From: Thermoanaerobaculia bacterium
Lineage (GTDB): Bacteria; Acidobacteriota; Thermoanaerobaculia; Multivoradales; UBA5704
Direction of reading: 5' to 3'
Length of the DNA stretch: 64,000 bases
Assembly (NCBI GenBank): GCA_036275055.1
Contig: DASUEN010000083.1
Coordinates: forward strand, 19,187 to 83,186
Made by a program: the position numbers and the translations under genes. This document shows, in pieces, positions 5,707 through 27,036 of this stretch. The number at the start of each line of letters is the position of its first letter. Position 1 is the stretch's first letter. Under the pieces are notes generated by a model. The model did not search any database. It worked only from the letters and a program-made list of their open reading frames with translations, and had not been told where the DNA came from.

Positions 5707-5726
5707 GCTTCGTCGCGACGCAGGCA

Positions 5727-9700: not shown

Positions 9701-10045
9701 GAGGACGGTGACCTGCTTGCGCTCCCCCTCAAGGGCGGATTTGGACTGGAGGACCTGGGCGGCGAGATGGGAGGGCGTATAGCTTTGGACTGGAGAAGCG
9801 AGGCGGGGTGCTTCAGGGGGCGGCGGAGGGGGGAGCGCCTCCGCCTTGGCCGCCCCGAGGGGGGAGCCGCACTCGCCGCAGAACTTGAAGCCGGGGAGGT
9901 TCTCAGTGCCGCACTGCGGGCAGAGGGCGGCCAGCTTCGCGCCGCACTGGCCGCAGAACTTCATGCCGGCGGGGTTGTCGAACTGGCAGTGTGGGCAATG
10001 CATGGGTTGTGGCGGTGGTTCGCAGGCCAGATTACCTTCACCCAC
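6683..10045 (-). CDS. Class III adenylate/guanylate cyclase fused to an AAA/STAND ATPase and TPR-like region, with N-terminal double zinc ribbon
   Basis: Zinc ribbons CPHCQF..CGQCG..CPQCG..CGECG. Cyclase core ERKQVTVLFCDLVGSTSLAE...FLGDGFMALFGAP...GINTGWVVVGG. P-loop AAEAGSGKSRL. Long helical-repeat C-terminus. The start is either GTG 10045 or ATG 10003 and is not resolved. Confidence 0.85.
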   Translation of the reverse strand: MGEGNLACEPPPQPMHCPHCQFDNPAGMKFCGQCGAKLAALCPQCGTENLPGFKFCGECGSPLGAAKAEALPPPPPPEAPRLASPVQSYTPSHLAAQVLQSKSALEGERKQVTVLFCDLVGSTSLAERLGPETMHLLLNRFFELALSEVHRYEGTINQFLGDGFMALFGAPIAHEDHARRAALAALGLQKLLAEHHAELGERGGVELRFRMGINTGWVVVGGIGDQLRRDYTAIGDTTNLAARLQQLAEPGAILVSEDTSRFLQGSARLEAIPPLQVKGKETPVRAFRLMGVGLLLQSEDAVLGSTARSPFVGRRREMAILEELRERAAAGEGQVVGIAAEAGSGKSRLVYEFRRRLWNRPVLHLAGRCLSYTSGVPYLPILYMLRNAWEIGEADDAAAVVAKVMAGLRRAEMEVAEALPYVLYLFGIREGTEALAELSPQALQTRTFRLLRQAILNESRRRLVVLEIEDLHWVDRTSEDFLSLLVEGLFAAHVLLIATYRSGYRPPWIEKSNATQISLARLTDAESEAVVRAVLRRAELPENLVAEVRGKAEGNPFFLEELARSLLEHPGVSVPDTIQGVVMARIDRLPDDHKRLLQTASVLGREFPLNLLAAVWEQVDNLPSLLSDLKRWEFLYEEPTAEEPRYLFKHALTQEAVYQTLLTGRRQALHTAAGQAFESLFAGRLEDVYDALAYHYSEAGEAGKAVSYLALFAAQAARRYAHAEAERALREALAHCERLPQTEADRRRMELVLLLAESLFPLARFPETLELFLAERDLLDRLQDSTLAGRYHFWLAHTYSYLGDQEAAAANARLSIEAARRSGDAITEGRAWYVLCRDAFWSGRFSEGIEHGRQAVDLLERSADRWWQGQAYWVAGFHHYVLGQFGEAFRRMEKAEAAWRALQDPRLDPSWSTGYFHASLGEYERGIEECKGGLERAQDPLNTAAALGFLGYAYLEKGDLPKATEALEGSVERLRRAGMKQLLGWFSAFLAEARLLSDRPDEARVLAREALAVTEEVRFRYGSGMAQRALGRIARAAGDREEAERWLGEAVESFKAIAAPFEVARTRLDLALAAGAGSNGAAWQLGEARRTFAELGLRVYVEKTDRLAGDLAPAKEETSK

Positions 10046-10154: not shown

Positions 10155-10185
10155 GTGGGCATTCGGCTACTCTCCTCATGCCCAC
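10155..10185 (-). terminator. Candidate intrinsic terminator downstream of the island precursor gene
   Basis: On the minus strand: GTGGGCAT, a 15-nt loop, ATGCCCAC, then TTCTTGGTTCT. It starts about 45 nt after the stop at 10231. Confidence 0.4.
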
Positions 10186-10230
10186 TATCTCCCGATGTGT
10201 GCAATAGCACGGCCTAATAACAGACAGTCA

Positions 10231-11046: not shown

Positions 11047-11075
11047 TTGCCTGTACACGAATGTCCTAGTATGCT
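11047..11075 (+). promoter_or_regulatory. Candidate sigma70-type promoter upstream of the ATP-grasp gene
   Basis: TTGCCT (11047..11052), 17-nt spacer, TATGCT (11070..11075). This would give a 5' UTR of about 165 nt. Sequence match only. Confidence 0.25.
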
Positions 11076-11244
11076 ACGCTTATGTTCCGGAACTCACCGG
11101 CAGCACTGCTCCGGGAAAGTCAGCGTCTCGCTTTAGCACCGGCCACTGACTAGCCCCATGCCGGGTTCGGGATGGATTTACTTTAGCCAAGCAGGGCCGC
11201 TGTGATCGCCCGCAGCGTTCCGGCAAGGTCAATCCTGAGAGGAA

Positions 11245-13558: not shown

Positions 13559-13821
13559 ATGTAAACTCGACCTTCCTCAACGTCGGCGGTGCTTACAACC
13601 AATACAGCCGTTTAAGTAATTTGTAGACAGAGCGGAGCGGCGATCTCGCAGCCACCGAGTGACAGAAACAGAGAGGCTTTTCCAGCCCAAACAGTGCCCG
13701 ATCGATGCAGAGCCAAATGAACCTATCCTCGAGACGATCAAGCTGGGTCAGACCCTGGCACGCAACAATTGCTTGGCCAAACCGCTCGCTGGAAAGCAGT
13801 CTGCGTCCAGCGTCGATGAGG

Positions 13822-14436
13822 CTACGTCACCATAATCTTTTTCACCATTCTGCCGAACCGCTCCCCCGCCAGGTAGACGCCGTCGAACACGTTCGCGTCC
13901 AGCTCATCGGCGTCATATTCCTCCTCCTCACCGTCCACAACCACCCCTGTGCCAAGGTCGCGGTGCAGCTCCCGGACCGTCGCCCTTGGAGAGCGCGAAA
14001 ACCGTCGAGTCCTCCAGGGCTTTGACCGTGGCGGAGGGGGCCCGGGCGTCCACGAAGGACATCTCGTCCACGATCTCGCCGGCGTTGAGGCGGGCGAGCT
14101 CCCTCTCCGGTCCCCGGTGGGGCCGGAGGGAGACGGCCAGCCTTCCTTCCAGCAGGATGAAGACGGAGTCCACCGGCACGCCCTGCTCGATGAGGGCGCC
14201 TCCCGCGGGGACGAACCGCTTCTGGCCAGCGCGGAGCATCCACTCCCCTGCTCGGTGACCCGTCCTCCCTTGATGACGTAGATGCGGTCGGCGTTCTGGA
14301 TGGTGCTCAGGCGGTGGGCGATGACGATGCGTGTAGCCTTCAGGCGCTCCAGTTTGCGGCTGACGATCTCCTGGGTACGGTTGTCGAGGGCGCTCTCGTG
14401 GCCTCGTCGAAGAGAAGGATGCGCGGTCGGTGCACG
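13822..14436 (-). pseudogene. Decayed duplicate of the exporter operon 3' end (cNMP-binding protein plus C-terminus of the second ABC ATPase)
   Basis: Collinear nucleotide similarity to 20085..20895 with two internal deletions. Translated fragments: DGVYLAGERFGRMVKKIMVT, MLRAGQKRFVPAGGALIEQGVPVDSVFILLEGRLAVSLRP...LARLNAGEIVDEMSFVDARAPSATV, and NRTQEIVSRKLERLKATRIVIAHRLSTIQNADRIYVIKGGRVTEQG. The fragments lie in different frames. Confidence 0.75.
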
Positions 14437-14667: not shown

Positions 14668-17487
14668 ATGACGATGGGTTTTTCTTTGATTACACGCTCC
14701 GACGACGCACTGGGCGAAGGCTTCCGGGAAGACTCGGCCTCTCCTGCGGGCCTGTCCGCCCCCCCGGTGGTCGTACGGATCGCGGGCCTCCCTGCACAGG
14801 CTCTCGAGCCCCTCACGAGCCCCTCCTGCGTCGCGCTGCTGCAAGCCCGCGAGCCTCTCAAGGAGGAGATCGGAGACGCCAGGCGATCGATGGCCGAGGC
14901 GATCGGCAACGCCCTTCCGAGGTTCGACGCTACGATCCGCGGCTTTTTGCTCACGATAAAAAGGAACTGCTTCAACGGTCGTGCCATCGAGCCGCTCCGC
15001 AGGAAAGCGGAGTGGGCCGAGCTTCTCCAGGTCTCGCCGGACCTGGCGGAGCGCATCGTGGCCCTCGAAGAGCAGCTCGACGAGAACGACCGTGCGCTCG
15101 CCACCCTTTACGAGAGCGAGCTCACTCGCGAACGGCGCCACGTCCTGACGCTGGCGGAGGATCGCCGTTTTCTCCGTGGCATTGCCCTGGGAAGACCCGG
15201 CCTGGTGGAGAAAATCCGCGCTCGGGCCCCTTCTCTCGCCGCTTCGGGATCTCTGAGAAGTCCGGAGAAGTGGGAACAGAGCCTCCTGCGTTTCGTGACC
15301 CGGGCCGCGGCGAAGCTGTCCGCCAACTCGACGCTCACCGCCTACGGTCTGGGGAGCATTCAAGACTCCCCGTCCCCGGTGGGCTTACGGTTCGCCGGCT
15401 CTCCTCAACGGGAGGTTTCCCTGGTGCGCGTCAACCGCCCGGAGCTCGAGCAGCTCCAGGCGCTCCTGCTGCGGCACCCGGCGGTGCGAGAGCGCGCTCT
15501 CGTCGCCTGGAACGACAGCCTCGAGGAGCTCGAGCCCGGCCAATATCGTTTCCTGCGCGATGGCCACTGGAAGCTCGAGCCCGGAGCGGAAGAATTTCAC
15601 TTCGTTCTGCCCGCGAGGGTCAAGGTGACGCTTTCCAACGCGGTGCTGGGCACTGCCCGAGAGGCCCTGCGAGTGTGTACGCTCCGCTACGACGCCCTCT
15701 TGGCGCTGCTGGAAGACCGGCACGGGATTTCGGCCGGCGAAACGACCGCTCCGCCGATTCGGAGTGCCCTCGACCAACTCGTCGATCTCGGGCTCCTCAT
15801 CCTCATGCCGCCCTGGCCGACTCACGAAGCTCGGTTGGAGCAGCGGATCGGACGGTTCCTTCGCGCCCTGCCCGGCGAGCCTACCCTGCGCGCGACGGCA
15901 GACGCCCTGGACGAGCTTCTGGCACTCGAAGCGGGCTTCGCTTCGGCTCCTCGGCCCGAGAGCTCGGTCGCCGCCATGGAAGACGCCTTCTCGCGGCTTC
16001 TCAACACGGTCGTCCATCTGGCCGGGCACGAGGGTCCTCTCGCCACCCGGGCACACTTCTTCGAAGACGTGCTCCTGGAAGCAGCAGTCAGCTCCGGCGA
16101 CGATCGGGGAATCTTCCAAATCGCGTCACAGATGGCTCAGGAGATCCTTCAGACCGCACGGCTGGTCTCGCGCTTTGCCGGCCTGTTCAACGTTCGCCAC
16201 GACGTCCTGCACACCCTGGCCGCTTGGTGGCGGGAGCATGAGCCGAGGCGGCGAGAGGTCCCTTTCACCGAGATTGCTCGCGGGTTCGCCCCTCTTTGGA
16301 AGCAGTTCTTTCAATTCCACAAGACCGCGAACGAGGATGCCCTCAATACCTTCGACCCCCTGCACACGGACTCGCTCGAAAGGCTGCGGGAGAGGCGGGC
16401 AACGCTTCTCGCCGAATCCCGGGAGTTGCTGAGCACCTCGCCAACGAAGGACTTCCTGTCGTCGCGACAGCTCGCGGAGATGGTGGAGCCTCTACCCCGC
16501 CGCTATGCCCCCCAACTGGGCACGTGCGTCTTCATCCAACCCGTGGATGCCGAGGGTAACTCTTGGGTGCTCAACCGCCTACACGAAGGCACGGGGCGGT
16601 ATCTGAGCCGCGTCACTCCGATCCTGGAAGGGCCTCGGCAGCAGCGCTTCCTCAACCACCTCATCGCGAGATCGGTGGTCGAGTTGGAGGGAGAGGAAGC
16701 GGATCTCCTCGAGGTCAAGTATCCGTGGAGCCACCTGGTGAGAGCTCACCCGCCTCAGGCGGCAAAGGTCTTGGACCTCCGGGGACTGCACCTCGGCCTG
16801 CCGCCAGAGCGGAGGGTCGGCCTCGGCGATCTCACGATCCAGGCGGATCTCGATTCCGAAACCTTCCGATTGATCGACCCTTCGGGGCGCCGCGTGCTTC
16901 CTGTCAGCCTGAGCACCTTGTCCGACGCCGGGCTCCCGAACCTCCTGCGCTTTCTTCTGGCGTTCGGACCGGGCGAGACCCGTGCCGTCTTTCCGCTCAA
17001 CTCCTGGGAGGGCGAGGAGGATTTCAGATCCTTCCACCGCTTGACCTGCGGCACGCTGGTCCTGCGCCGCCATCGTTGGACGATCGGTATCGAGAAGCTC
17101 CGCGGTGACCTGGAAGCTCTTTCCGGCTTGCGAGCTTACGTTGCCATCCACGATTGGCGCCATCGGCTGGGCCTGCCGGCGGTGGGCTTCTACTACGAGC
17201 TCTCGTACCAGGGGATTCTCAAGCCGCAGTACGTCGATTTCCGCTCGCCGTCGCTGTGCCGGCTTTTCGTCGCCAGCCTGCAAAAGATGGCAACCGGGCA
17301 CCTGACCCTCGAGGAAGCCCTGCCGTCGCCCGCCGACTTCCCCTTCGACGCTTCGATGAACCGCCGAGGCTTCGAGCTTTTGATCGATAGTTTGGCGATC
17401 CGTACCGTGAACGGAAATTGCTCCGCCTGGGTACCGGACCGCAACCGAGAGAGTCTCTCTCTCAGAAGGGAAGTACAACATGTCTAA
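14668..17487 (+). CDS. Lantibiotic dehydratase, N-terminal (glutamylation) part only: split LanB, 939 aa
   Basis: N-terminal PPVVVRIAGLPAQALEPL and C-terminal FYYELSYQGILKPQYVDFRSPSLCRLF resemble Lant_dehydr_N family proteins. The size matches thiopeptide-type split dehydratases. There is no elimination domain at the C-terminus. Confidence 0.7.
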   Translation: MTMGFSLITRSDDALGEGFREDSASPAGLSAPPVVVRIAGLPAQALEPLTSPSCVALLQAREPLKEEIGDARRSMAEAIGNALPRFDATIRGFLLTIKRNCFNGRAIEPLRRKAEWAELLQVSPDLAERIVALEEQLDENDRALATLYESELTRERRHVLTLAEDRRFLRGIALGRPGLVEKIRARAPSLAASGSLRSPEKWEQSLLRFVTRAAAKLSANSTLTAYGLGSIQDSPSPVGLRFAGSPQREVSLVRVNRPELEQLQALLLRHPAVRERALVAWNDSLEELEPGQYRFLRDGHWKLEPGAEEFHFVLPARVKVTLSNAVLGTAREALRVCTLRYDALLALLEDRHGISAGETTAPPIRSALDQLVDLGLLILMPPWPTHEARLEQRIGRFLRALPGEPTLRATADALDELLALEAGFASAPRPESSVAAMEDAFSRLLNTVVHLAGHEGPLATRAHFFEDVLLEAAVSSGDDRGIFQIASQMAQEILQTARLVSRFAGLFNVRHDVLHTLAAWWREHEPRRREVPFTEIARGFAPLWKQFFQFHKTANEDALNTFDPLHTDSLERLRERRATLLAESRELLSTSPTKDFLSSRQLAEMVEPLPRRYAPQLGTCVFIQPVDAEGNSWVLNRLHEGTGRYLSRVTPILEGPRQQRFLNHLIARSVVELEGEEADLLEVKYPWSHLVRAHPPQAAKVLDLRGLHLGLPPERRVGLGDLTIQADLDSETFRLIDPSGRRVLPVSLSTLSDAGLPNLLRFLLAFGPGETRAVFPLNSWEGEEDFRSFHRLTCGTLVLRRHRWTIGIEKLRGDLEALSGLRAYVAIHDWRHRLGLPAVGFYYELSYQGILKPQYVDFRSPSLCRLFVASLQKMATGHLTLEEALPSPADFPFDASMNRRGFELLIDSLAIRTVNGNCSAWVPDRNRESLSLRREVQHV

Positions 17488-17701
17488 GCCCAAGGATGCG
17501 AACCTGGAGATCGAGGCCCTTTCCGACGACGAGCTCGAGTCAGTCAGCGGAGGCAATACCACCACCAACTCGGGCGGCACCTGCACCACCAACGCGGGCG
17601 GCGTCTGCAGCACCGCTATCAACGGCGGCTGCACCACCAACACGGGTGGCACCTGCACCAACCTCCCAGCCCAACCCGCACAACAACTGAACGCCGACTG
17701 A
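17480..17701 (+). CDS. RiPP precursor, 73 aa, double-glycine leader plus Thr/Cys/Asn/Gly-rich core
   Basis: Leader MSKPKDANLEIEALSDDELESVSGG, then core NTTTNSGGTCTTNAGGVCSTAINGGCTTNTGGTCTNLPAQPAQQLNAD. The ATG overlaps the LanB-like stop by 8 nt. Confidence 0.75.
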   Translation: MSKPKDANLEIEALSDDELESVSGGNTTTNSGGTCTTNAGGVCSTAINGGCTTNTGGTCTNLPAQPAQQLNAD

Positions 17702-17715
17702 TGAATTGACCAGCC

Positions 17716-17733
17716 TGCCCTCGATCGTGAGGG
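17716..17733 (+). terminator. Weak hairpin just after the precursor gene (possible attenuator or RNA-stabilising structure)
   Basis: GCCCTC, loop GATCGT, GAGGGC, 15 nt after the stop. There is no U-tract, so this is not a strong terminator. Confidence 0.25.
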
Positions 17734-17766
17734 CGGGTTGGTCCCGTCCGCTAGAGAGGTTACGCG

Positions 17767-19011
17767 ATGAAGCATGACGTGAAGACTTTTGGCGATTTGA
17801 TTGCCCCTTTGTCTGCCGGCGACTTTTTCGCCAGCTACTGGGAGAAGGGGTTTTTGCATCTACAGAACGAGCCCGACCGGTTCTCCGGCTATTTTTCGCT
17901 GCGAGACGTCGATGGCTGGTTGACGTCGACACGGGGCAGACTCTGCATCACCGCCCCCGAGGGCGACGAAGCGCGCACCGATTGGTATCAACCCCAGGAA
18001 ATCAGCATGAGTATCGCCTATGCAGCCTTTGCAAGAGGCTGCTCGCTGGTATTGGATCGCATGGAGGACCGGCCCTCCCTCCAGGGTCTCGCCAAGGCCC
18101 TGGGAAGGGATTTCCATGCCGACGTCGGCATGGAGGCATTTTTGACCCCCCAGGGGGCGAAAACGTTTCCGACCCACGCCGCCGGACACGACCTTCTCAT
18201 CCTGCAGTTGGAAGGAGAGAAGATCTGGCAGCTTCATGAGTTCTCCCTGCTGCAGCTCAACCCCTCGGAGAAGACGAACTTCAAGTTCCCCCTGGAATGG
18301 TACGGACGCACCAAGACACCGGTCATTGCCGAAGTCTGCCTCAAGCCTGGCGACGTGCTCTACATTCCGCGCGGGATGCCCTACCAGGCCGTCGCCCAAA
18401 ACGGGGCTTGCCTTCACCTGTACGTCACCATCACTCCCTTGTTCTGGATGGATTTCTTGAAGGTCGCCGCCGAGTGCGCCGCCCTCCATTCCCAGGACGT
18501 GCGGAGAGCGCTGCCGCCTGGCTTCGTCGAGAGCCAAGAGATCTGTGAGCAGATGCGGAGCACCTTTCAGGACGTGATGAAGGTGTTTCAGGAAGTGACT
18601 TCCTTCGACGAGGTTCTCGCCGCGGTCAAGCGCAACCGTGTAAAGCGCCAAGACTTCCCACAGGATGGCCACTTCACCCAACTCCTGGAGCCCGCAGGGC
18701 TCACCGTCGATTCCGAGGTCGAGCGACGCCGAAACGTCCTCTGTTTCGTCGAAGAGATCGTCGACGTCGATCGGAACACCAAGAGCGCCATCTTCTTCGG
18801 CAAAGAACGGGTCACCGGCCCGCGGCATCTGCGCCGGGCGCTGGAGTTCATTCGGGATCAAGCCCGGTTCCGGGTGTCCGAGGTCCCCGGGCTCGACGAG
18901 AAGAGCCAGTTGACCCTGGTGCGCCGCCTGATCACCGAAGGACTGCTGCGGCGGGCCCTCGCGGCGGAGAGGATCGCTCAGCCGACGCCGGCGGTGCCGG
19001 TTTCAAGCTGA
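17767..19011 (+). CDS. Cupin-4 / JmjC ribosomal-oxygenase (ROX, YcfD/NO66-like) family protein with atypical metal-site residues
   Basis: ROX hallmarks FFASYWEKGFLHL, FLTPQGAKTFPTHAAGHDLLILQLEGEKIWQL, LKPGDVLYIPRGMPYQAVA, and a C-terminal winged-helix-like tail. The expected HxD...H positions read H-A-A ... Y. Confidence 0.75.
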   Translation: MKHDVKTFGDLIAPLSAGDFFASYWEKGFLHLQNEPDRFSGYFSLRDVDGWLTSTRGRLCITAPEGDEARTDWYQPQEISMSIAYAAFARGCSLVLDRMEDRPSLQGLAKALGRDFHADVGMEAFLTPQGAKTFPTHAAGHDLLILQLEGEKIWQLHEFSLLQLNPSEKTNFKFPLEWYGRTKTPVIAEVCLKPGDVLYIPRGMPYQAVAQNGACLHLYVTITPLFWMDFLKVAAECAALHSQDVRRALPPGFVESQEICEQMRSTFQDVMKVFQEVTSFDEVLAAVKRNRVKRQDFPQDGHFTQLLEPAGLTVDSEVERRRNVLCFVEEIVDVDRNTKSAIFFGKERVTGPRHLRRALEFIRDQARFRVSEVPGLDEKSQLTLVRRLITEGLLRRALAAERIAQPTPAVPVSS

Positions 19012-20088
19012 TGGCGCCTCACCTCTCTTCGGCGGCAACTCGACGAACGCGGAGAGCGCCGGTGGAAGCAGGGCGCGGAGGGCCTCTGCCGGTTCCTCGG
19101 AAAACCCTCGCGGCCCCCTTTCCCCGATCCAGGAGAGGTCTTCCTCGCCGCGGCTCAGCACCTCCTGGAGGGTCACTGTCAGGAGGCGGCTCAGGTAGAG
19201 CTCTTCCGCGTTGCTGAGCCCGAGACGGCTTGCCGTCATATGGAGGTGGCTCCCCCCCGTCCTCGCACGGGCGACGCGGTCGCCGGTTCCTTTCGCTTCC
19301 GAGAGACGGCCAGAGCCCGCCGCGAGGAGCTCCGCCGCGGACGCTGGAGGCTCGTTCTCCGCCTGCACGGAACGTACCCTGGCCAAACTTTCGCGGAAGA
19401 GCCGCAGGAAAAGCTCCCTTTGGGATACTGCGACCCGGTCGGCCTTCTCCACGACTTTCGACGCCCCTTCGCTCCACGAATCTACGCCATACCTCAGCAG
19501 ATCGAGTAATTCGGCTTCGTCAGCCGCGAAACCGAGGGCTTGCTGGAGCAAAAGGAGGAACGCTTGCGCGAGTAGAACCGAACGCGACGCGTCCCCATGC
19601 TTCGCCAGAAGCTCGATGGCCGCCACGCTCGATAGCGTGAAGACATCGAGAGAAGAGCGAAACAGGCCCGGGCCTCCGTAGCGTTCGACCTCGGGGCGAA
19701 ACGGTACCACCTGCAACGAGTTGTCCGGATAGATTGAGGTGTCGATCTCGTGGGGGTCGCCCGCCAGGATGTACTCGTTCGATCGCTGGATCACCTCTTC
19801 AGCCAGCGACTTTGTCGAAGGGGTCAGGTCGAAAAAGTCTCGTGCCAATCGTTGAACCTCTGCGAGCACGTGGTCTCTGAAGCCAGGACGAGCTCTCAGC
19901 CGCAGACGGACGTGAGGCCCACCCAGTGCATAGCGCACGAAGAAGAAAGCCTCGATCTGATCAGCCTTTACGAGAGAGATCACCACCGGATGGACAACGC
20001 CTCTCACGACGCGATCCGGGTCCTCGTGATAGTAGAGATGGCAGGAGATCCAGCGCTCCTGGACCTCGTCGAAGGGCTGGTCGGTCAC
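19003..20088 (-). CDS. LanB C-terminal (SpaB_C, thiopeptide-type) glutamate-elimination domain protein
   Basis: WISCHLYYHED...IEAFFFVRYALGGPHVRLRLRARPG is the signature opening of SpaB_C/thiopeptide-type bacteriocin biosynthesis domains. The GTG start overlaps the upstream stop (GTGA). Confidence 0.75.
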   Translation of the reverse strand: MTDQPFDEVQERWISCHLYYHEDPDRVVRGVVHPVVISLVKADQIEAFFFVRYALGGPHVRLRLRARPGFRDHVLAEVQRLARDFFDLTPSTKSLAEEVIQRSNEYILAGDPHEIDTSIYPDNSLQVVPFRPEVERYGGPGLFRSSLDVFTLSSVAAIELLAKHGDASRSVLLAQAFLLLLQQALGFAADEAELLDLLRYGVDSWSEGASKVVEKADRVAVSQRELFLRLFRESLARVRSVQAENEPPASAAELLAAGSGRLSEAKGTGDRVARARTGGSHLHMTASRLGLSNAEELYLSRLLTVTLQEVLSRGEEDLSWIGERGPRGFSEEPAEALRALLPPALSAFVELPPKRGEAPSA

Positions 20089-20627
20089 GTCACCATCACC
20101 CGCTTCACCATCCGGTCGAACCGCTCCCCTGCCAGGTAGACGCCGTCGAGCACGTTCGAGTCCAGCTCGTCGTCGTCCTCCTCGTCCTCACCCATGGCCG
20201 CCCCGGTGCCAAGGTCGCGGTGACGCTCGCGGACGGTGGTGGAGAGGTAGATCGCCAAAGCCCGGTAGAACCGCGCCGCGAAGCCCTGGTCCGCCGCCAG
20301 CTTGGCGTTGAGGGTGGCCTTGGCGAGGGCGAAGACAGTGGAGTCCTCGGCGGCGCGGACGGTGGCGGAGGGGGGCCGGGCGTCGACGAAGGACATTTCG
20401 CCTACGATCTCGCCGGCGTTGAGGCGGGCGAGCTCCCTTTCCGCTCCCCGCCGGGGGCGGAGGGAGACGGCGAGCCTTCCTTCCAGCAGGATGAAGACGG
20501 AGTCGACCGGCACCCCCTGCTCAATGAGGATGCCGCCGGCCGGGACGAACCGCTTCTGGCCGGCGCGGAGCATCCACTCGACGTCATCGTCGTTGAGCTG
20601 GCCGAAGAGGAAGAGGACTTTGCGCAT
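20085..20627 (-). CDS. Stand-alone cyclic nucleotide-binding domain protein
   Basis: cNMP-binding beta-barrel pattern GGILIEQGVPVDSVFILLEGRLAV...AGEIVGEMSFVDARPPSATVRA. Acidic linker, then a short C-terminal tail. Confidence 0.8.
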   Translation of the reverse strand: MRKVLFLFGQLNDDDVEWMLRAGQKRFVPAGGILIEQGVPVDSVFILLEGRLAVSLRPRRGAERELARLNAGEIVGEMSFVDARPPSATVRAAEDSTVFALAKATLNAKLAADQGFAARFYRALAIYLSTTVRERHRDLGTGAAMGEDEEDDDELDSNVLDGVYLAGERFDRMVKRVMVT

Positions 20628-20637
20628 GTTTGACTCC

Positions 20638-23532
20638 TCAGGCGATCTGCCTTTCGGCGAGACGGGCGAAGGGACCGTTGCTCCGCAGCAGCTCCTGGAA
20701 GGTGCCCTGCTCAGCGACCCTGCCGCCTTCGATGACGTAGATGCGGTCGGCGTTCTGGATGGTGCTCAGGCGGTGGGCGATGACGATCCGCGTCGCTTTC
20801 AGGCTCTCCAGGCTGTGGCTGACGATCTCCTGGGTGCGGTTGTCGAGGGCGCTGGTGGCCTCGTCGAAGAGGAGGATGCGCGGCCGGTGGACGATGGCGC
20901 GGGCGATCAGGATGCGCTGCTTCTGGCCGCCGGAGAAAGTCTCGGCCCCCTCGCTCACCACGGTGTGCATCCCCATGGGCATGGCCTTGACGTCATCCTC
21001 CAGCCCGGCGGCCCGCGCCGCCTCCCAGGCGTCGTCGATCCCCAAGTTGGCGCTCCCTACGATATTGGAGAAGATGCTCCCCGCCATAGGGCGGCCGCTT
21101 TGGAGGACGACACCGATCTGCCGCCGCACGGACTGCACGGCGAGCCCCGCCAGGTCCTGGCCGTCGAAGTAGATGGAGCCCGCAGTCGGCTTCTCGAAGC
21201 CGAGGATGAGGCGCAGGCAGGTGGACTTGCCCGCGCCCGAGGGCCCCACCAGGGCGATGAACTCGCCGGGGCCGGCGCGGAAGGAAACGTCGTCCAGCAC
21301 TAGGGGCGTCTCCTCGTGATAGCGGAAGGAGACGTGGCTGAACTCGATCTCCCCTGAAAGCTCGCCCGGCTCGGACTTCGACTCGTCCACCTCGGGCACG
21401 GTCTCCAGGATCGGTCGCAGGCGCTCATAGACTGGCACCGCGGCGAGCACGCTCGAGAAGACCGAGACCACAGACAGCGCCGCCGACAGGAACTGGCCGA
21501 AAGCGGCGTTGAAGGCCAGAAACTCGCCCAGGGGAAGGGACTCGTTCGAAACGAAACCCACCATGGCGAAGACGCCGAGCGAGGTGAGGACGCCGTAGAC
21601 CGCGTTGAACGCCGTCTGCGCGTTGGCGGCCCGCTGAGCCGCGAGGGTGCGGCGGCGCTGCTCGGCGAAACGCTCGGCCCAGCGGGCATAGGCCCGGGAC
21701 TCGGCGCCCGCCACCCGCAGCTTGGCGATGCCGTGAATGAGGCCGAAGAGGAGGCTCGCGATGCGCCCTTGGACCTCCAGGATGGCCCGCTGATGGCGGA
21801 GTTGGAGCCAGACGAGGACGGCCGTCACCACCACCAGGATCAACACCATGCCGGTGGCGAGAAGAGCGAGCCGCCAACTGTAGTAATAGAGCAGCGCGAA
21901 GCTGAAAACCGAGAAGACCGTCGCCAGGGCGAGGGAGAGGACATTGCCCGTGAGCAGGTCGCGGATGGTGTCGATCCCCAGTGCGCGGTTGGCCAGGTCG
22001 CCCACGGTGAAGCGCCGGAAGAAAGTGACGGGCAGGGCCAGCAGCCGGTCCCACACCGCGGACTGGACGGCGCCGTCCACCTTTCCCCCGAGGCGCAGGA
22101 CGGCGAGGCTGCGGATCACCTGGAAGATCGCTCCCGCCACCGAGGTGACGATCAGGGCCAGGGTGATCTGGAGCAGTTGGCTGCGGTCCGCCCCGGGGAT
22201 GACGCTGCCGAAGACCTGCCCCGTGAGGACCGGCACCAGGAGCCCCAGGAGCCCGCCGGCCAGCCCCATGAGAACGATCGTGGCAAGGTCGCGGCGGCGG
22301 CCCGCGAAGGCCATGCGCGCGAGGTCGCCCATTCCCACCGGCCGCGCCGGTAGGGGCGGATAGAGCATGTGGGCGTCGCCGCTCAAGGTCTCGGAGACGG
22401 CTTCGTCGACGCTCACCCGCGTCCCCGCCGCCGGATCGGCCAGCACGTAGCTCTGGGGCGAGGTAGGGAGGAGGGCGACGGGGCGGCGGGCCTTAGGGTC
22501 GTCCGGCGGGATCTGGAAGGCGACCAGAGGACCGTTGTCGCGGCGCCACCAGTCGTCGCGCAAGATCACCCGGCGGGAGCGGATCCGCGACGCGTTGCAA
22601 ATCTGCACCAGGAGGTCGCCCTGCTTGCCGGCGGGTTGCCCCTCCGGCCGGTCGCGGATCTCGATCCCCTGGGCCTCCCCCACCAGCCGGACGGCGGCGA
22701 GGATGGGAGAGGACTCCGCCGCCAGGGCGGCACCGGCCCGCGAAGACGCTTCGAGGACGGAGGCGAGCCGGGCGTAGGCACCGCGCAGCACGGAGCGGTC
22801 GAGGTCCCGCCTGCGCCCCAGGCGCTCACGTTCGAGCCCCTCCCCTTTCTCGCGGTCATAGGCAACGGCTTCGAGGCAGAGCTCGTGAAAGCGGGCGATC
22901 CCTGCCCAGAGCGCCCCATCCCGCAGCGCCTCGGCCGTACCGCAGGAGGTGAGCCGGGCCTCGCCGGCCGCCACCAGCCAGACGTCCTCGGGCACGGGAA
23001 AGAGCTCGCCCCCCTCGATCCCCAGCCGCTCGTCTCCCAGCAGGTACGTGCGCCCCTCCAGGTGCCGTACCCAGACGACGCCATCCCGGCTCCGGGCCAG
23101 CCGCCCCGGCTCCAGGCGGGTCTCCTCACCGGGGCGCAAACTCTCGAAGTTGCGCGGGAACGCGGGCCGTACCAGGCCGCCGCCGAGCCCCGCGAGCCAG
23201 GCGTCGAACTGGCCGGCCAGGCCGGGGATGTCAGCCGCCAGCAGCCGGCGCAGGCGCGTGCCGGGCGCTCCTACGGCGAGGAGCCCCAGGCCGTGGCCGC
23301 TTGCCGCCGCGGGCTCGAAGCCGCAAAGGATGCCGTCGGCGGAGACCGTGGAGAGATGGATGCGGGGGCCGGTTTCGCCTTGGGGAACGGCGAATACCTC
23401 GGCCATCCCCTCTTCGACGAGCCAGATCTCGCCGCCGGCGTCGAGGGGCAAGGGCGCGTTGCTGGCAATGGGAATGTCTGCGGGGGCGGGCTCTCCCGCC
23501 AGGACCGGCTGCGGCTCGGATGGGCTCGCCAT
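20638..23532 (-). CDS. NHLP/Nif11-type bacteriocin export ABC transporter, permease/ATPase subunit with N-terminal cNMP-binding-like domains (no peptidase)
   Basis: Walker A GPSGAGKST, signature FSGGQKQR, Walker B ILLFDEATSALD. Six-helix TMD. An N-terminal region of about 300 aa has beta-barrel-like repeats (IWLVEEGMAEVFAV...). Start taken at ATG 23532 (MASPSEPQP), 4 nt after the upstream stop. Confidence 0.85.
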   Translation of the reverse strand: MASPSEPQPVLAGEPAPADIPIASNAPLPLDAGGEIWLVEEGMAEVFAVPQGETGPRIHLSTVSADGILCGFEPAAASGHGLGLLAVGAPGTRLRRLLAADIPGLAGQFDAWLAGLGGGLVRPAFPRNFESLRPGEETRLEPGRLARSRDGVVWVRHLEGRTYLLGDERLGIEGGELFPVPEDVWLVAAGEARLTSCGTAEALRDGALWAGIARFHELCLEAVAYDREKGEGLERERLGRRRDLDRSVLRGAYARLASVLEASSRAGAALAAESSPILAAVRLVGEAQGIEIRDRPEGQPAGKQGDLLVQICNASRIRSRRVILRDDWWRRDNGPLVAFQIPPDDPKARRPVALLPTSPQSYVLADPAAGTRVSVDEAVSETLSGDAHMLYPPLPARPVGMGDLARMAFAGRRRDLATIVLMGLAGGLLGLLVPVLTGQVFGSVIPGADRSQLLQITLALIVTSVAGAIFQVIRSLAVLRLGGKVDGAVQSAVWDRLLALPVTFFRRFTVGDLANRALGIDTIRDLLTGNVLSLALATVFSVFSFALLYYYSWRLALLATGMVLILVVVTAVLVWLQLRHQRAILEVQGRIASLLFGLIHGIAKLRVAGAESRAYARWAERFAEQRRRTLAAQRAANAQTAFNAVYGVLTSLGVFAMVGFVSNESLPLGEFLAFNAAFGQFLSAALSVVSVFSSVLAAVPVYERLRPILETVPEVDESKSEPGELSGEIEFSHVSFRYHEETPLVLDDVSFRAGPGEFIALVGPSGAGKSTCLRLILGFEKPTAGSIYFDGQDLAGLAVQSVRRQIGVVLQSGRPMAGSIFSNIVGSANLGIDDAWEAARAAGLEDDVKAMPMGMHTVVSEGAETFSGGQKQRILIARAIVHRPRILLFDEATSALDNRTQEIVSHSLESLKATRIVIAHRLSTIQNADRIYVIEGGRVAEQGTFQELLRSNGPFARLAERQIA

Positions 23533-23536
23533 GGCC

Positions 23537-25753
23537 TCATTCAGTGCTGATAAGCCGGGAGTAGGGGCCTTCGACGACCCGAAGCTGGTCGTGGGTGCCG
23601 CGCTGCACCACCTTGCCGTGGTCGAGGACGAGGATCTCGTCCGCATCGCGAATGGTGCTCAGGCGGTGGGCGATGAGGAGGCAGGTGCAGCCGCGGCGGC
23701 GCAGGCGCTCGTCGATCTGGCTCTCGGTGGAGGGGTCGAGGGCGCTCGTCGCCTCGTCGAGGACGAGGATCGAGGGCCTCCCTACCAGGGCGCGGGCGAT
23801 CTCCAGGCGCTGGCGCTGGCCGCCGCTCCAGTTGGCCCCTCCCTCCTCGACCGGGCTGTCGTAGCCCCCCGGGCGGGCCGCCACGTCCTCGTGGATGGAA
23901 GCGTCCTTGGCCGCGGCCACCACTTCGGGCAGGGGAACGGTGGAGTCCCAGAGGGTCAGGTTCTCCCGCACGGTCCCCTCGAAGAGGAAGACGTTCTGAT
24001 CGACCGTGGCGAGCGAGCTCGCCAGCACCGCGGGCGGGATCGCCGAGCGCGGCTGGCCGTCGAAAAGGATCTCCCCCTCCCACGGCTGGTAGAGGCCGGT
24101 GACCAGGCGGGCGAGCGTCGACTTGCCGCTTCCCGAGCCCCCCACCAGGGCGACGCGGGAGCCGGGCTTGAGCGTCAGGCAAAGCCCCTCGACGAGCGGC
24201 GGATCGAGCCGGCTGTAACCGAAGGAGACTTGGCGCAGCTCCAGGCTGCCGGCGAGCTTGACGGCCTCTCCCTCCGCCGGCATCTCGTCGTCGAGCCCGG
24301 CCGCGGCGCCGGGGTCGATGCGGTAGCGCAGGACGTCGTCCAGCCGGTTCATGTCCCCCTCGACCGTTTGCAGCTTGCCGCCGAGGCTCACCAGCCGGGT
24401 GACCGGAGCGATGAAGGCGGCCATCAGGAGCTGGTAGGCCACCAGGCCGCCCACGGAGAGCGAACCGCTCATCACCCGCACACCGCCGATCCCCAGGATC
24501 AGCGCCGAGTTGATCGCCGACAGCAGGCCCGGCCCGGCGTCGAGAAGTTGGGTGTAGCGTTCGAGCTCCTGCCGGCCGTTGACCACCTTGGCCTGGTAGC
24601 CGGCCCAACGGGAGAAGAGGTCGGACTCACCGCCCGTGGCCTTCAAGGTCTCGATGGTCTGCAAGCCGCCGATGGCCGTGCCCAGCAGCTTCCCCTGGTC
24701 CTGCACGAGGCGGCGGTTGCCGTCCACCCGCCGGCGCGAGACGTACTTCAAAGCCGCCACGTTGAGCGACACCACGGCGATTCCCACCAGGGTCAGCACC
24801 ACGTCGTACTGGAAGAGGAGCACGGCGAAGAAGGCGATCATCACGGCGCCCAAGGCGTTGGTCGCCAGATCGCGTGACAGGAGCTGGGCCACGCGGTCGT
24901 TGATCGCCACCCGCGAGCTGACGTCCCCCGCGAAGCGCTGGCTGAAGAACTCCGAGGGAAGGCGCAGCACGTGCCAGAGGAACCGGGACGAGCCCCCTAC
25001 CGCCATACGGGTCTCCAGACGCAGGAGATAGCTCTGCTGCAACCAGGTGAGGGCCCCCAGCAGCACGGCGGCGGCGCCCATGGCGAGGAGCAGCGGCGGC
25101 AGCCACTCGCGATGCCCTTCCAAGAGGACGCTATCGAGGAAGACCTTGGAGAAGACCGGCACCACCATCCCCGGAATGGCGAGCGCCAGGCCGGCGAGCA
25201 CCACGAAGACCAGGGCAGCCTTGGTGCCGGCCAGGCGGCTCTTCAACGCCGGGACGAGGCTCGGCGGGTCGCCCCGCTTCGCGAACTCGGGACCAGGCGA
25301 AAACGTCAGCACGACACCGGTGAAGGCCTGGTCCAGCTCTTCCTCGGTGACCGTCCGCGGCCCGGTGCCGGGGTCGTTGAGATAGACCCGCCCTTTGCGG
25401 ATACCCTCCAATACTACGAAGTGGTTGAAGTTCCAGTGCAGGATCATGGGGGGATGGACGGCACGCAGCGACTGGGGCTCCCGCTTGTAGCCCTTGGCTT
25501 CGAGGCCGTAGGTGCGGGCGGCCTTGACCATGTTGCTCGCCTTGCTGCCGTCGCGCGAGACGCCGCAGGCCACCCGCAGCTCTTCGAGCGGCACCCAGCG
25601 GCCATAGTGGGCGAGGACGATGGCGAGCGCCGCCGCGCCGCACTCGACGGCCTCCATCTGCAGGACGGTGGGGGTCCGCACCCGCGCCTTGGGCCGCTCT
25701 GCCGGCGGGCGCTGCCGGCGGAATTTCTCCTGGAGGCTGGCCAGGAACGGCAT
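23537..25753 (-). CDS. NHLP/Nif11-type bacteriocin export ABC transporter with N-terminal C39 peptidase domain
   Basis: C39 catalytic-Cys region VLQMEAVECGAAALAIVLAHYG plus HWNFNHFVVLEG. Walker A GGSGSGKST, signature WSGGQRQR, Walker B ILVLDEATSALD. Confidence 0.9.
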   Translation of the reverse strand: MPFLASLQEKFRRQRPPAERPKARVRTPTVLQMEAVECGAAALAIVLAHYGRWVPLEELRVACGVSRDGSKASNMVKAARTYGLEAKGYKREPQSLRAVHPPMILHWNFNHFVVLEGIRKGRVYLNDPGTGPRTVTEEELDQAFTGVVLTFSPGPEFAKRGDPPSLVPALKSRLAGTKAALVFVVLAGLALAIPGMVVPVFSKVFLDSVLLEGHREWLPPLLLAMGAAAVLLGALTWLQQSYLLRLETRMAVGGSSRFLWHVLRLPSEFFSQRFAGDVSSRVAINDRVAQLLSRDLATNALGAVMIAFFAVLLFQYDVVLTLVGIAVVSLNVAALKYVSRRRVDGNRRLVQDQGKLLGTAIGGLQTIETLKATGGESDLFSRWAGYQAKVVNGRQELERYTQLLDAGPGLLSAINSALILGIGGVRVMSGSLSVGGLVAYQLLMAAFIAPVTRLVSLGGKLQTVEGDMNRLDDVLRYRIDPGAAAGLDDEMPAEGEAVKLAGSLELRQVSFGYSRLDPPLVEGLCLTLKPGSRVALVGGSGSGKSTLARLVTGLYQPWEGEILFDGQPRSAIPPAVLASSLATVDQNVFLFEGTVRENLTLWDSTVPLPEVVAAAKDASIHEDVAARPGGYDSPVEEGGANWSGGQRQRLEIARALVGRPSILVLDEATSALDPSTESQIDERLRRRGCTCLLIAHRLSTIRDADEILVLDHGKVVQRGTHDQLRVVEGPYSRLISTE

Positions 25754-27036
25754 CAGATCCCCAGCTTCTCCCGCAGCGTGGGGATGACGAGGGCGATAGG
25801 GCGGTCCTGCTTCACCACCACGTCGCCCGCCGCCAGGGTGCCGCTGCTGATCTTGAGGCTCGGCCCCCGCGAGGAGGACCAGCGGTATCCCGTGGGGGTT
25901 TTGACGTCGCGGCGCAAGGCGACGTTGATCTGGATGGGCGGCCCCTCGGTCATCAGCTTGGTGACCAACGCCTCGTTGCCCAGCAGGCGCGTCATACCGC
26001 GGGCCGAGGAAGGGAACTCCGCCACCCAGACCACCCGTCCCAGGATGGAGCCGAACTCCTCCCGTTTGACGGTGCTGGGCGTCACCTGCACCGCCATCCC
26101 CGGCTGTACCTGCTTCCCCGCCGAGGCCGGGACGAAGAGCACGGCCATCAGGTCCTCGGAGAGCACCTCGACGGAGAGCACCGGGGAGCCGGGCGTCACC
26201 ACGTTGCCGCGGTTGGCCAGGACCTCCAGCACGCGCCCGGCGAAGGGGGAGAGGACGTTGACGTTCTCTCCGAGCTGGGCACTGAGCTCACGGGTCTGGA
26301 GGTCCAGGTCGCGCAGCGTGGTCTGCCGCGCCTCGAGCTGCTGGTCGAGCGCTTGGTCGGCCTCCAGGCGCTTGAGCTCCAGGCCGCTCAGGTCGAGCTT
26401 CTGCTGGGCGAGCTGGTCGCGCTTGGCGTTCAGGTCCTGCTGGGTGGTGAGGTAGGTCTGCTTGGTGATCAGGCCGTCGTCGAGCAGGCTCTTGCCGGCG
26501 GCCACCCGCTCCTGGAGGAGGGCCACGTCCTTCTGCAGGGCGTCGATGCTCCGCTCGAGATTGGCCCGCTGCAGGGCGAGGTCCCGGGCCCGCAGCCGCT
26601 TCTGCTCGTCCGAGGAACGTTGGAGAGACAGGTACTCCGATTGCAGGGCCGTCTGCTTGGCTTTGTTGTCCCGGATCTGGCGGATCAGCGAGTCCTGGCG
26701 GATCCTCGCCACGGGCTGCCCCTTGGCGATGACGTCCCCGACGCTCACCAGCACCTCCGCCACTTGGCCGCTGGCAGGGGAGACGAGGTCGGAAACTCCC
26801 CCCTGGCGCAGCAGGATCCCCTCGCCGTGCGCCTGGGTGGGGATCGTCCCCCAGATCCCCCAGGCGAGGGCGGCCAGGAGCAGGGCGCCGAGGCCGCTCA
26901 GCGAAAGCCAGCCACGCGGATCGGTAACCTGCACCAGTTGATCGAGCTGCTCGGGAGAGGAGAGCCTCTCCAGTGCCACTTTGCGGAAGATCACGGCCTG
27001 CGCTCCTCCACGACGGGGGGCAGGGTGATGAGCCAC
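25753..27036 (-). CDS. HlyD-family periplasmic adaptor of the bacteriocin exporter
   Basis: FRKVALERLSSPEQLDQL opening, single TM, long coiled-coil (QSEYLSLQRSSDEQKRL...), beta-barrel C-terminus. One-base TGATG junction with the ABC gene. Confidence 0.85.
   Translation of the reverse strand: MAHHPAPRRGGAQAVIFRKVALERLSSPEQLDQLVQVTDPRGWLSLSGLGALLLAALAWGIWGTIPTQAHGEGILLRQGGVSDLVSPASGQVAEVLVSVGDVIAKGQPVARIRQDSLIRQIRDNKAKQTALQSEYLSLQRSSDEQKRLRARDLALQRANLERSIDALQKDVALLQERVAAGKSLLDDGLITKQTYLTTQQDLNAKRDQLAQQKLDLSGLELKRLEADQALDQQLEARQTTLRDLDLQTRELSAQLGENVNVLSPFAGRVLEVLANRGNVVTPGSPVLSVEVLSEDLMAVLFVPASAGKQVQPGMAVQVTPSTVKREEFGSILGRVVWVAEFPSSARGMTRLLGNEALVTKLMTEGPPIQINVALRRDVKTPTGYRWSSSRGPSLKISSGTLAAGDVVVKQDRPIALVIPTLREKLGI

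Follow-up and report, generated by a model that had tools for sequence, protein, structure and literature searches.

A LanC-less cassette of a class-I-like split-LanB family in a soil Acidobacteriota genome

How might thioether rings form in a peptide whose biosynthetic cassette encodes no LanC cyclase? A four-gene cassette in a soil Acidobacteriota genome (positions 14668-20088 of the window, by which we mean the whole 64-kb stretch of DNA analysed) offers a natural test case for this question, because both LanC and the iron-binding residues of its cupin have been lost. The cassette encodes a stand-alone LanB-type glutamylation protein (LanB-N; 14668..17487, + strand, 939 aa), a precursor peptide (17480..17701, + strand, 73 aa), a ROX/JmjC-fold protein (17767..19011, + strand, 414 aa) and, convergent to these three genes, a SpaB_C (Lant_dehydr_C) glutamate-elimination protein (19003..20088, - strand, 361 aa), at the positions given in an earlier sequence-only reading of this DNA. 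The stop codon of LanB-N overlaps with the start of the precursor gene, and JmjC and SpaB_C overlap each other at their 3' ends; at its start, SpaB_C overlaps the stop of the neighboring cyclic-nucleotide-binding gene (GTGA). All four ORFs are intact, with coding-like GC content by codon position and dN/dS values (about 0.2-0.43) that indicate purifying selection on every gene, and their GC3 (0.73-0.81) lies below that of the flanks (0.9). The gene order LanB-N, precursor, JmjC and opposite-strand SpaB_C, with no LanC, is shared by at least 19 distinct loci, which come from different MAGs.

The sequence-only reading had taken the 939-aa and 361-aa proteins for the two halves of a LanB, to be recognized as such by HMMs. 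This proved correct for the 361-aa protein, which matches PF14028 (2.3e-35) and TIGR03891 (3.7e-23), but the 939-aa protein, annotated as hypothetical at NCBI, has no match among the Pfam and NCBIfam HMMs, and its identity as LanB-N was established from a family profile and a fold search instead. The single sequence matched GodF (9jhq) at 7.7e-5 in a phmmer search, its family profile (A1) matched TbtB (6ec7) at 2e-57 and GodF at 1.6e-36, and seven of 30 family members matched PF04738. The AF2 model (pLDDT 86.7) returned as significant Foldseek matches only LanB glutamylation domains (TbtB, GodF, MibB, MadB and NisB), the best solved structure being TbtB (TM 0.78, E 5e-31), and dN/dS against L087 is 0.27. 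A tRNA-dependent LanB glutamylation domain is thus present by profile and fold, although the curated HMMs miss it. The 361-aa protein contains FFFVRYALGGPHVRLRL and the invariant motifs PHxRLR, EVERYGG and HMTxxRLG, which align to the NisB elimination motifs. The catalytic Arg/Arg/His set of the SpaB_C domain is conserved as Arg63, Arg136 and His283, the two arginines aligning with NisB Arg786 and Arg826 and the histidine presumably corresponding to NisB His961. Since these elimination residues are kept, we rejected the protein as a pyridine synthase; its score against the TbtD/PbtD model is 55.7 bits, compared to a cut-off of 325. Extra domains were found neither in LanB-N nor in SpaB_C of the window's clade.

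The 73-aa precursor consists of a leader, MSKPKDANLEIEALSDDELESVSGG (17480-17554), that ends in ELESVSGG and is matched by TIGR01847 and TIGR03949, two models of double-glycine bacteriocin leaders, and a 48-aa core, NTTTNSGGTCTTNAGGVCSTAINGGCTTNTGGTCTNLPAQPAQQLNAD, whose translation bears out the earlier count of four Cys and 14 Ser/Thr. A leader followed by a Ser/Thr- and Cys-containing core, as in class I pathways, is therefore encoded, and more than 25 related loci have a homologous precursor at the equivalent position.

The 414-aa protein had been described as a ROX/JmjC-type cupin, a description that holds for its fold and not for its iron site. It matches JmjC_2 (PF08007) at 1.6e-19, and in Foldseek its AF2 model (pLDDT 91) is matched along its entire length by NO66 (E 8e-26, about 445 columns), MINA53 and YcfD. 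The protein shares with them three domains, a JmjC double-stranded beta-helix, a helical dimerisation domain and a winged-helix domain. H136-A-A138 and Y206 align to the HxD and H of the NO66 facial triad for Fe(II), such that two of the three ligands are lost, Ala replacing the Asp and Tyr the distal His. Judged from this alignment, the window cupin cannot bind Fe(II) canonically, and because its triad reads H-A-A...Y it cannot be regarded as a working ROX oxygenase. In the alignment, the Lys of the window's G-E-K-I-W corresponds to that of NO66 G-R-K-L-W at the 2-oxoglutarate-binding position; the window protein keeps it, and many relatives without the triad have R, A or E instead. Of the 121 JmjC sequences scored, which comprise the window protein and one representative from each of 120 clusters, 50 lack the triad. 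The JmjC alignment shows no evident new Cys/His metal site, and the window gene evolves under purifying selection (dN/dS 0.17-0.22). That JmjC-domain proteins act as tailoring hydroxylases in RiPP pathways is established (PMC12707348), and the closest known systems to the window cupin are the ribosomal oxygenases together with the RiPP hydroxylase BipG. The ROX/JmjC homolog would in its relatives ancestrally be an Asn-directed hydroxylase; the 414-aa protein is probably a non-oxidative accessory protein.

When we compared the cores of triad-intact and triad-lost loci, Asn occupied position -6 of every Cys in all 13 triad-intact loci and in none of 13 triad-lost loci. The triad-lost loci instead have Ser or Thr at -6 or -5 of each of 54 Cys, and at least one Ser/Thr within every inter-Cys segment; in the window core, Thr stands at -6 of each of the four Cys.

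To which class does the cassette belong? Pfam scans of roughly 50 window genes detected no LANC_like, LanM, YcaO or second SpaB_C protein in the 64 kb, and an HMM that we built from 17 family LanCs found nothing at E<=10 among all six-frame ORFs of the window, confirming what the sequence-only reading had stated for these families. The LanC zinc cyclase of class I clusters is hence absent within 64 kb. That reading had also excluded a radical SAM enzyme, but a SPASM-domain peptide maturase (12275-13558; TIGR04193, 1.6e-95) sits 1.1 kb upstream of the cassette, next to its ATP-grasp partner (11245-12291; TIGR04192), within an inserted, foreign low-GC island; the maturase is without the CxxxCxxC motif. 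The further claim that the cassette fits neither class I nor thiopeptide pathways stands in its second half only. A thiopeptide cluster is ruled out, as the window holds neither a YcaO nor a second SpaB_C-like [4+2] pyridine synthase of thiopeptide or pyritide type, and its single SpaB_C is of the elimination type. The cassette is, however, class I-like, because sister loci carry LanC in the same gene order. We conclude that it arose by reduction within a class-I-like family of split-LanB cassettes.

Within this Thermoanaerobaculia cassette family the window cassette is a derived member. In sister loci (L014, L016, L097-L099, L103, L104 and L119) LanC lies between JmjC and SpaB_C in an otherwise unchanged order, the sole gene-order difference between the window and its nearest LanC-bearing relatives. 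The type B sister loci (for example L014, L097-L099, L103 and L104) share gene order, leader, regulator and NHLP exporter with the window, but they possess LanC and a complete HxD...H triad, and their cores contain S-N-x-x-N-A-C-C motifs. The extra ...N-A-C-C motif in the cores of the nearest LanC-bearing relatives is missing from all 26 compiled cores of the LanC-less type A, to which the window belongs, suggesting from these sequences that the single-Cys repeats may be independent of LanC. CC does not always go together with LanC, since type C, another LanC-less lineage, retains a CC motif in its CSxWCC cores. The JmjC gene is kept within the cassette in both LanC-less lineages.

The cassette adjoins a complete set of the four NHLP/Nif11 export families (TIGR03794, TIGR03796, TIGR03797 and TIGR03896), three of them scoring above the curated cut-off. 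On the - strand follow a cyclic-nucleotide-binding, bacteriocin-transport-associated protein (20085..20627; PF00027, 1.8e-19; TIGR03896, 6e-47, its 160.5 bits lying 0.5 bit under the cut-off of 161.05), the export ABC transporter permease/ATPase ABC2 (20638..23646; TIGR03797, 937.6 bits, cut-off 709), the C39 peptidase-ABC transporter ABC1 (PCAT; 23537..25753; PF03412, 6.9e-36; TIGR03796, 1106.7 bits, cut-off 853), predicted to be the GG-leader protease and exporter, an HlyD-type periplasmic adaptor (25753..27036; TIGR03794, 369 bits, cut-off 156) and a TolC-like outer-membrane efflux protein (26991..28538; PF02321 OEP, 2.9e-26) with counterparts at the equivalent position in L003, L005 and L089. 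The NHLP/Nif11 systems described so far generally accompany precursors of LanM or nitrile-hydratase-like type, whereas the cargo here is a split-LanB substrate. On the other side, a nucleotide cyclase-AAA-TPR regulator (6683..10045, - strand; Guanylate_cyc, AAA_16 and TPR domains; TIGR03903-like) is encoded, whose syntenic counterparts lie directly upstream of LanB-N in L003, L004 and L089. Between regulator and cassette, blastn and protein fragments revealed a decayed copy of the cNMP-binding gene and the 3' end of ABC2 (13824..14436, - strand). In three segments it is 81-88% identical to 20087-20893, and the direct repeat so formed brackets the four-gene cassette; L087 and L088 have comparable relics upstream of their LanB-N genes.

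Split LanB enzymes have been described in class I clusters (PMC7268733). Like the window, the pinensin-type pathways of Bacteroidota distribute glutamylation and elimination over two polypeptides and combine a GG-type leader, a Ser/Thr/Cys core and a peptidase-containing ABC exporter; the window differs in the absence of LanC, the ROX/JmjC-fold gene inside the cassette, the tandem G-G-x-C repeats of its core and its Acidobacteriota host. TbtB/TbtC (thiopeptide) and GodF/GodG (goadsporin), among which are the solved structures most similar to the 939-aa protein, are likewise split and independent of LanC, but there a YcaO turns Cys into thiazoles and, in the thiopeptide pathways, a second SpaB_C-like enzyme acts as pyridine synthase. 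With both enzymes absent from the window, the Cys would stay available as nucleophiles.

The reading that we favor, while rating it somewhat short of an even chance, is a LanC-less descendant of a class-I-like split-LanB pathway with dehydration, LanC-independent closure of four rings, and GG cleavage and export. We infer dehydration from homology, and ring formation and topology from the core pattern: LanB-N would glutamylate core Ser/Thr from Glu-tRNA(Glu), the separate SpaB_C protein would then eliminate glutamate to give Dha/Dhb, and each of the four Cys would attack a dehydrated Thr/Ser located five to six residues before it, giving four tandem, non-overlapping (methyl)lanthionine rings. 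Closure may be spontaneous and substrate-templated, or helped by a retained partner protein; we propose that no dedicated LanC is needed because the rings are simple and Gly-Gly-separated. What speaks against this reading is that cyclisation onto Dhb, when spontaneous, is as a rule slow and poorly stereocontrolled. The iron-free JmjC homolog probably persists as a non-catalytic partner, for example binding the peptide via its winged-helix domain, a role that is conjecture. By their family assignments, the C39-ABC, ABC2, HlyD and TolC proteins would cleave after Gly-Gly and export the product, with SpaB_C translationally coupled to the export operon.

A LanC or LanM acting in trans from outside the 64 kb could also close the rings of the dehydrated peptide, a possibility that we regard as unlikely, although related Thermoanaerobaculia genomes often contain several lanthipeptide clusters (LanB, LanC or LanM). 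In L089 a LanM is encoded 7 kb upstream of a cassette that is otherwise identical, in L094 another set of LanB-N, SpaB_C and LanC lies 3 kb upstream, L017 and L023 share one contig, and the LanCs of the family have a CCG zinc motif resembling that of ProcM, a substrate-tolerant enzyme. Yet LanC is missing not only from the window but also from the surroundings (+-10 kb) of those other type A loci that have 10 kb of flank, and the long type A contigs (2.2-8.4 Mb) do not figure among the best 120 of 276 LanC matches, where type B and D contigs appear; moreover, in the type A lineage the CC motif is gone from the cores wherever an in-cluster LanC is absent.

Recruitment of the iron-free JmjC homolog as ring-forming catalyst or folding template in place of LanC seems to us quite improbable. 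Its persistent purifying selection despite the loss of two Fe ligands, its retention in types A and C and its confident model with a winged-helix domain speak for such a role, and RRE-like winged helices have been noted on PF08007 proteins of bacteria in RiPP contexts (PMC12710340). JmjC and LanC coexist, however, in 13 type B loci, which means that JmjC did not arise as a LanC replacement, and the variable substitutions at the metal site (Y, F or H), with no evident new Cys/His site, look like decay rather than redesign. We give least credence to a product free of thioethers, be it a linear dehydrated peptide with free, disulfide-bonded or metal-bound Cys, or to a decaying cassette. The missing cyclase, the dead oxygenase, the lowered GC3 and the bracketing decayed repeat would fit, but the ORFs are intact and under selection, the cassette is conserved in many MAGs, the spacing of Ser/Thr to Cys is strict, and one would expect free thiols to react when a Gly-rich peptide places them beside Dha/Dhb.

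Two smaller features complete the locus. Directly 3' of the precursor stop codon lies a GC-rich 15-bp hairpin (17708..17743, + strand; -33.9 kcal/mol, z = -4.25), and strong hairpins of differing sequence occur at the same position in six relatives (L087, L003, L089, L005, L004 and L088), three of them with a U-tract; the element is probably an attenuator or stabilizes the transcript. A Nif11-leader precursor is encoded at 5389-5703.

The four genes of the cassette lie exactly where the sequence-only reading had placed them, with the codon-position GC typical of coding sequence in a window of about 68-70% GC. That reading had taken the proteins encoded at 14668-17487 (plus strand; LanB-N, 939 aa) and 19003-20088 (minus strand; SpaB_C, 361 aa) for the two halves of a split LanB dehydratase, with Pfam and TIGRFAM HMMs as its own test. 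The 361-aa protein, which carries FFFVRYALGGPHVRLRL, is a clear Lant_dehydr_C/SpaB_C protein (PF14028, 2.3e-35; TIGR03891), whereas the 939-aa protein would fail this test, because it has no Pfam or NCBIfam match at all. Phmmer matched the latter to GodF (9jhq) at 7.7e-5, a profile of 30 LanB-N family members reached TbtB (6ec7) at 2e-57 and GodF at 1.6e-36, and 7 of 30 family members individually reached PF04738. Its AlphaFold2 model (pLDDT 86.7) gave eleven significant PDB matches, all of them LanB glutamylation domains, led by TbtB (TM 0.78) and followed by GodF, MibB, MadB and NisB. From these profile and fold matches we conclude that the 939-aa protein is a divergent stand-alone glutamylation domain, nearest to the split type of thiopeptide and goadsporin pathways. 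SpaB_C retains the invariant PHxRLR, EVERYGG and HMTxxRLG motifs, which align with NisB Arg786 and Arg826 and whose His motif we take to correspond to NisB His961; since TbtD-type pyridine synthases lack these motifs, SpaB_C is predicted to be an elimination enzyme.

The 73-aa ORF at 17480-17701 (plus strand) consists of the double-glycine leader MSKPKDANLEIEALSDDELESVSGG and the core NTTTNSGGTCTTNAGGVCSTAINGGCTTNTGGTCTNLPAQPAQQLNAD, which contains 4 Cys and 14 Ser/Thr, as had been read, with at least one Ser/Thr in every inter-Cys segment. LanB-N, this precursor gene and a JmjC-fold gene (17767-19011) form a plus-strand unit in which the LanB-N stop is overlapped by the precursor start. Directly 3' of the precursor stop lies a 15-bp GC hairpin (-33.9 kcal/mol, z -4.25), and hairpins of differing sequence occupy the same position in six relatives; a hairpin after the precursor gene is typical of RiPP structural genes with high expression. 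Neither the Rfam nor the tRNA scan of the window gave a match. SpaB_C ends a minus-strand operon encoding a TolC-like protein, an NHLP-type HlyD protein, a C39-peptidase ABC transporter, a second ABC subunit (ABC2) and a cNMP-binding protein, and its start codon shares the sequence GTGA with the stop codon of the gene before it. Three of the export-operon proteins exceed the curated NCBIfam cut-offs, the cNMP-binding protein falls 0.5 bit below, and a nucleotide-cyclase/AAA/TPR regulator is encoded upstream. The cNMP-binding gene and the 3' end of ABC2 recur as a decayed direct repeat (13824-14436 versus 20087-20893, DNA identity 81-88%), so that the four-gene cassette is bracketed by the repeat, and ABC2 or cNMP relics also lie upstream of LanB-N in two related loci (L087, L088). 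Together these remnants suggest duplication or recombination as the way in which the cassette came into the export locus or was relocated inside it.

The absence of LanC, LanM, YcaO and a second SpaB_C was borne out for the entire 64 kb. An HMM made from the LanCs of 17 related genes matched none of the six-frame ORFs of the window even at E<=10, no LANC_like, DUF4135/LanM, YcaO or second SpaB_C domain emerged when about 50 genes of the 64 kb were scanned against Pfam, and neither LanB-N nor SpaB_C of the LanC-less clade has an extra domain that might hide a cyclase. At 60968-63124 (plus strand) a Ser/Thr protein kinase fused to a WD40 beta-propeller is encoded, which we rejected as a LanL- or LanKC-type synthetase for want of a lyase or LanC-like domain. 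The accompanying claim that no radical SAM enzyme lies nearby needs qualification: a SPASM-domain peptide maturase (12275-13558; TIGR04193, 1.6e-95), devoid of a CxxxCxxC motif, was found 1.1 kb upstream of the cassette, where it forms a grasp-with-spasm pair with an ATP-grasp maturase (11245-12291; TIGR04192). The location of this pair in a low-GC island (10046-13800, GC 0.49-0.53 vs 0.68) and its absence from syntenic relatives led us to reject it as part of the cassette. In those relatives the regulator gene immediately precedes LanB-N and the island is absent, and the island is therefore probably a recent horizontal insertion between regulator and cassette; we regard the two genes as a RiPP module of their own that arrived recently. 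An 84-aa ORF at the margin of the island (10231-10485, minus strand), on the other strand than the grasp and SPASM genes, has a GG-type leader ending in PLTDEALEGVSGG followed by MELEPVDGGGGGVITYCDHPERTGIGQSEAFDSIRDT; it may represent either another precursor or a chance ORF.

When metagenomes were scanned with the 939-aa protein alone, no relatives came up, whereas an alignment-based scan was successful. LanB-N has 112 cluster representatives, almost all of which come from metagenomes of Acidobacteriota and Thermoanaerobaculia; about 170 related loci were retrieved and typed with family HMMs. The arrangement of the window (type A: LanB-N, precursor, JmjC, opposite-strand SpaB_C, no LanC) occurs in at least 19 distinct loci, and where 10 kb of sequence on either side are available, these hold no LanC; the exceptions, L089 (a LanM) and L094, are due to unrelated clusters next to the cassette. 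Type B, which comprises 13 loci (among them L014, L016, L097-L099, L103, L104 and L119), has the type A order plus a LanC between JmjC and SpaB_C and is the nearest outgroup, and the remoter relatives, which include Haliangium ochraceum, have LanC and lack JmjC. In a LanB-N neighbour-joining tree, crude as such trees are, type A is nested within LanC-containing lineages, so that its lack of LanC appears to be a derived loss, and a clean one in the window, because the 3' ends of JmjC and SpaB_C overlap. The LanCs of the family (alignment A3: L014, L022, L006, L017 and others) have C-C-G at the classical third zinc motif C-H-G, which presumably creates a three-Cys ligand set resembling that of ProcM-type LanM enzymes. 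One relative with 75% identity to the 939-aa protein (P0006, 1324 aa) is a fusion of LanB-N to UDP-glycosyltransferase domains (PF00201, PF06722), and some relatives may therefore glycosylate their peptide.

The 414-aa protein encoded between precursor and SpaB_C belongs to JmjC_2 (PF08007, 1.6e-19), and its model (pLDDT 91) can be superposed from end to end, dimerisation and winged-helix domains included, on NO66, MINA53 and YcfD. In the alignment with NO66, however, F-P-T-H-A-A-G-H-D stands opposite A-P-H-Y-D-D-I-E and P-R-G-M-P-Y opposite P-R-G-F-I-H, placing Ala at the Asp ligand and Tyr at the distal His of the Fe(II)-binding HxD...H triad. Among 121 sequences (120 cluster representatives and the window protein) the triad is kept in 71 and not kept in 50; the latter have all lost the Asp and, in 48 cases, one of the two His as well, and the similarly crude JmjC tree places two triad-lost clades beside one intact clade. 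A halogenase-like HxA...H site was dismissed, as the pattern occurs in only 2 of the 121 sequences and most also lack a His. With dN/dS values of 0.22 against L087 and 0.17 against L089, similar to those of LanB-N, SpaB_C and the transporters, the gene is under purifying selection. Alignment and model thus point to a conserved pseudo-oxygenase, not an active oxygenase. A non-catalytic role, for which peptide binding by the winged helix is a candidate, is plausible; bacterial PF08007 proteins whose winged helices are RRE-like have been reported from RiPP settings (PMC12710340).

The core peptides co-vary with these enzymes. Triad-intact type A cores consist of 2-5 repeats of N-[STN]-[GA]-[ST]-[GT]-x-C with Asn exactly six residues before the Cys (31/31 repeats, 13/13 loci), whereas none of the 13 triad-lost loci, the window included, has Asn at -6 of every Cys (Fisher p = 2e-7 at locus level, uncorrected for phylogeny, the triad losses probably representing one or two events). 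In triad-lost loci Ser/Thr occupies -6 of 41 of the 54 Cys and -6 or -5 of all 54, with Gly-Gly at -3 and -2. Type B cores have an extra S-N-x-x-N-A-C-C unit, with Ser at -6 of the first Cys and Asn at -6 of the second, and this CC unit is found in none of the compiled type A cores. The co-variation argues that Asn -6 is likely the JmjC target in the relatives, and we conclude that the single-Cys repeats would be independent of an in-cluster LanC. CC and LanC do not always go together, since cores of a second LanC-less lineage are CSxWCC. This type C lineage (L018, L021, L037, L105, L032, L033; order LanB-N, SpaB_C, JmjC; triad intact) has very short cores with a conserved S-x-W-C-C unit (CSVWCCTNVAAV, FCSIWCCSGQANATADETGG, GSGWCCDAAQ), three of five compiled cores starting with Cys or F-C immediately after the GG site.

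The explanation we prefer, tentatively and with slightly less than even confidence, combines LanB-type dehydration, LanC-independent closure, an accessory JmjC homolog and C39 export, and we infer all of its chemical steps. LanB-N and SpaB_C would dehydrate Ser/Thr, and each Cys would add to a dehydrated Thr/Ser that precedes it by five to six residues, so that four rings would form in tandem, without overlap and without LanC; the iron-free JmjC homolog would act as an accessory protein, and the C39 transporter would cut after GG and export the product. Alternatively, a LanC or LanM could act in trans, which is less likely but worth serious consideration: several lanthipeptide clusters are present in related genomes, and the best 120 of 276 matches to a LanC profile are weak evidence against a LanC in the same MAG. 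That the JmjC homolog, conserved by selection and stripped of its iron site, is itself a new cyclase or template seems rather doubtful. The least probable case is a cassette that makes no thioethers or is decaying; the clade is conserved, under selection and found in many genomes, having kept dehydratase and Cys-rich substrate and dropped the cyclase.

A further proposal, which we regard as improbable, makes hydroxy-Asn a LanB substrate in the relatives and the ROX-type protein a LanC-free ring-forming partner. In triad-intact relatives JmjC would beta-hydroxylate the invariant Asn at -6 of each Cys, the split LanB would glutamylate and eliminate the 3-hydroxy-Asn like a Thr to give dehydro-Asn, and Cys would add to form an Asn-C-beta thioether, a linkage for which radical-SAM 'NxxC' enzymes are the only source known to us. 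In the lineage of the window, Thr in place of Asn would bring its own beta-hydroxyl, rendering oxygenase chemistry dispensable, and the iron-free JmjC would be retained as a scaffold for ring closure. A simple Asn-to-Thr swap at -6 as proof of this route is weakened, because triad-lost cores often retain N-T pairs, with Thr fixed relative to the preceding Cys.

By definition, class I lanthipeptide biosynthesis pairs LanB with LanC. Thiopeptides, goadsporin and pyritides also employ a split LanB without LanC, but with YcaO or pyridine-synthase chemistry. In the available literature, the coverage of which was incomplete, searches on LanB with JmjC/cupin clusters, split LanB, Acidobacteria lanthipeptides and LanC-less cyclisation turned up no account of this family. 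RiPP tailoring by JmjC hydroxylases has precedents, BipG for example (PMC12707348). The novelty lies in the combination: a class-I-type cassette that has kept its Cys and lost LanC, with a ROX-type protein and then loss of its iron site. Retention of the dehydratase without the cyclase offers a handle on substrate-encoded versus enzyme-directed ring formation, and the family provides a natural stepwise reduction series, from LanC with active JmjC through active JmjC only to iron-free JmjC, in which each step is accompanied by core changes; this series speaks for Asn as the residue that JmjC acts on, and it supplies controls. The predicted products are Gly-rich tandem-ring peptides of uncultured soil Acidobacteriota, from which, to our knowledge, few natural products have been characterised.

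Elsewhere in the window, a Nif11-type leader precursor (5389-5703, plus strand; TIGR03798, 2e-13) with the very short post-GG core DDGWPPPPPPPGP is followed by a gene (5673-6749, plus strand) for a 358-aa protein that neither Pfam nor NCBIfam matches. We rejected this protein as a hidden cyclase or LanC substitute, because it is equally frequent in LanC-containing and LanC-less loci and always stands beside a Nif11-type precursor. The pair occurs in about 30 related loci regardless of LanC or JmjC, with cores including DDNWPPA, DGWPPS, AWNDPPPP..., WSGDDDGGTGG and WDGNGGGGG. The family of the 358-aa protein comprises 1771 representatives at E<=1e-3, some of them fused to a methyltransferase or a weak squalene-hopene-cyclase-like domain, and the pair has the look of an uncharacterised RiPP module with the NHLP exporter in common.
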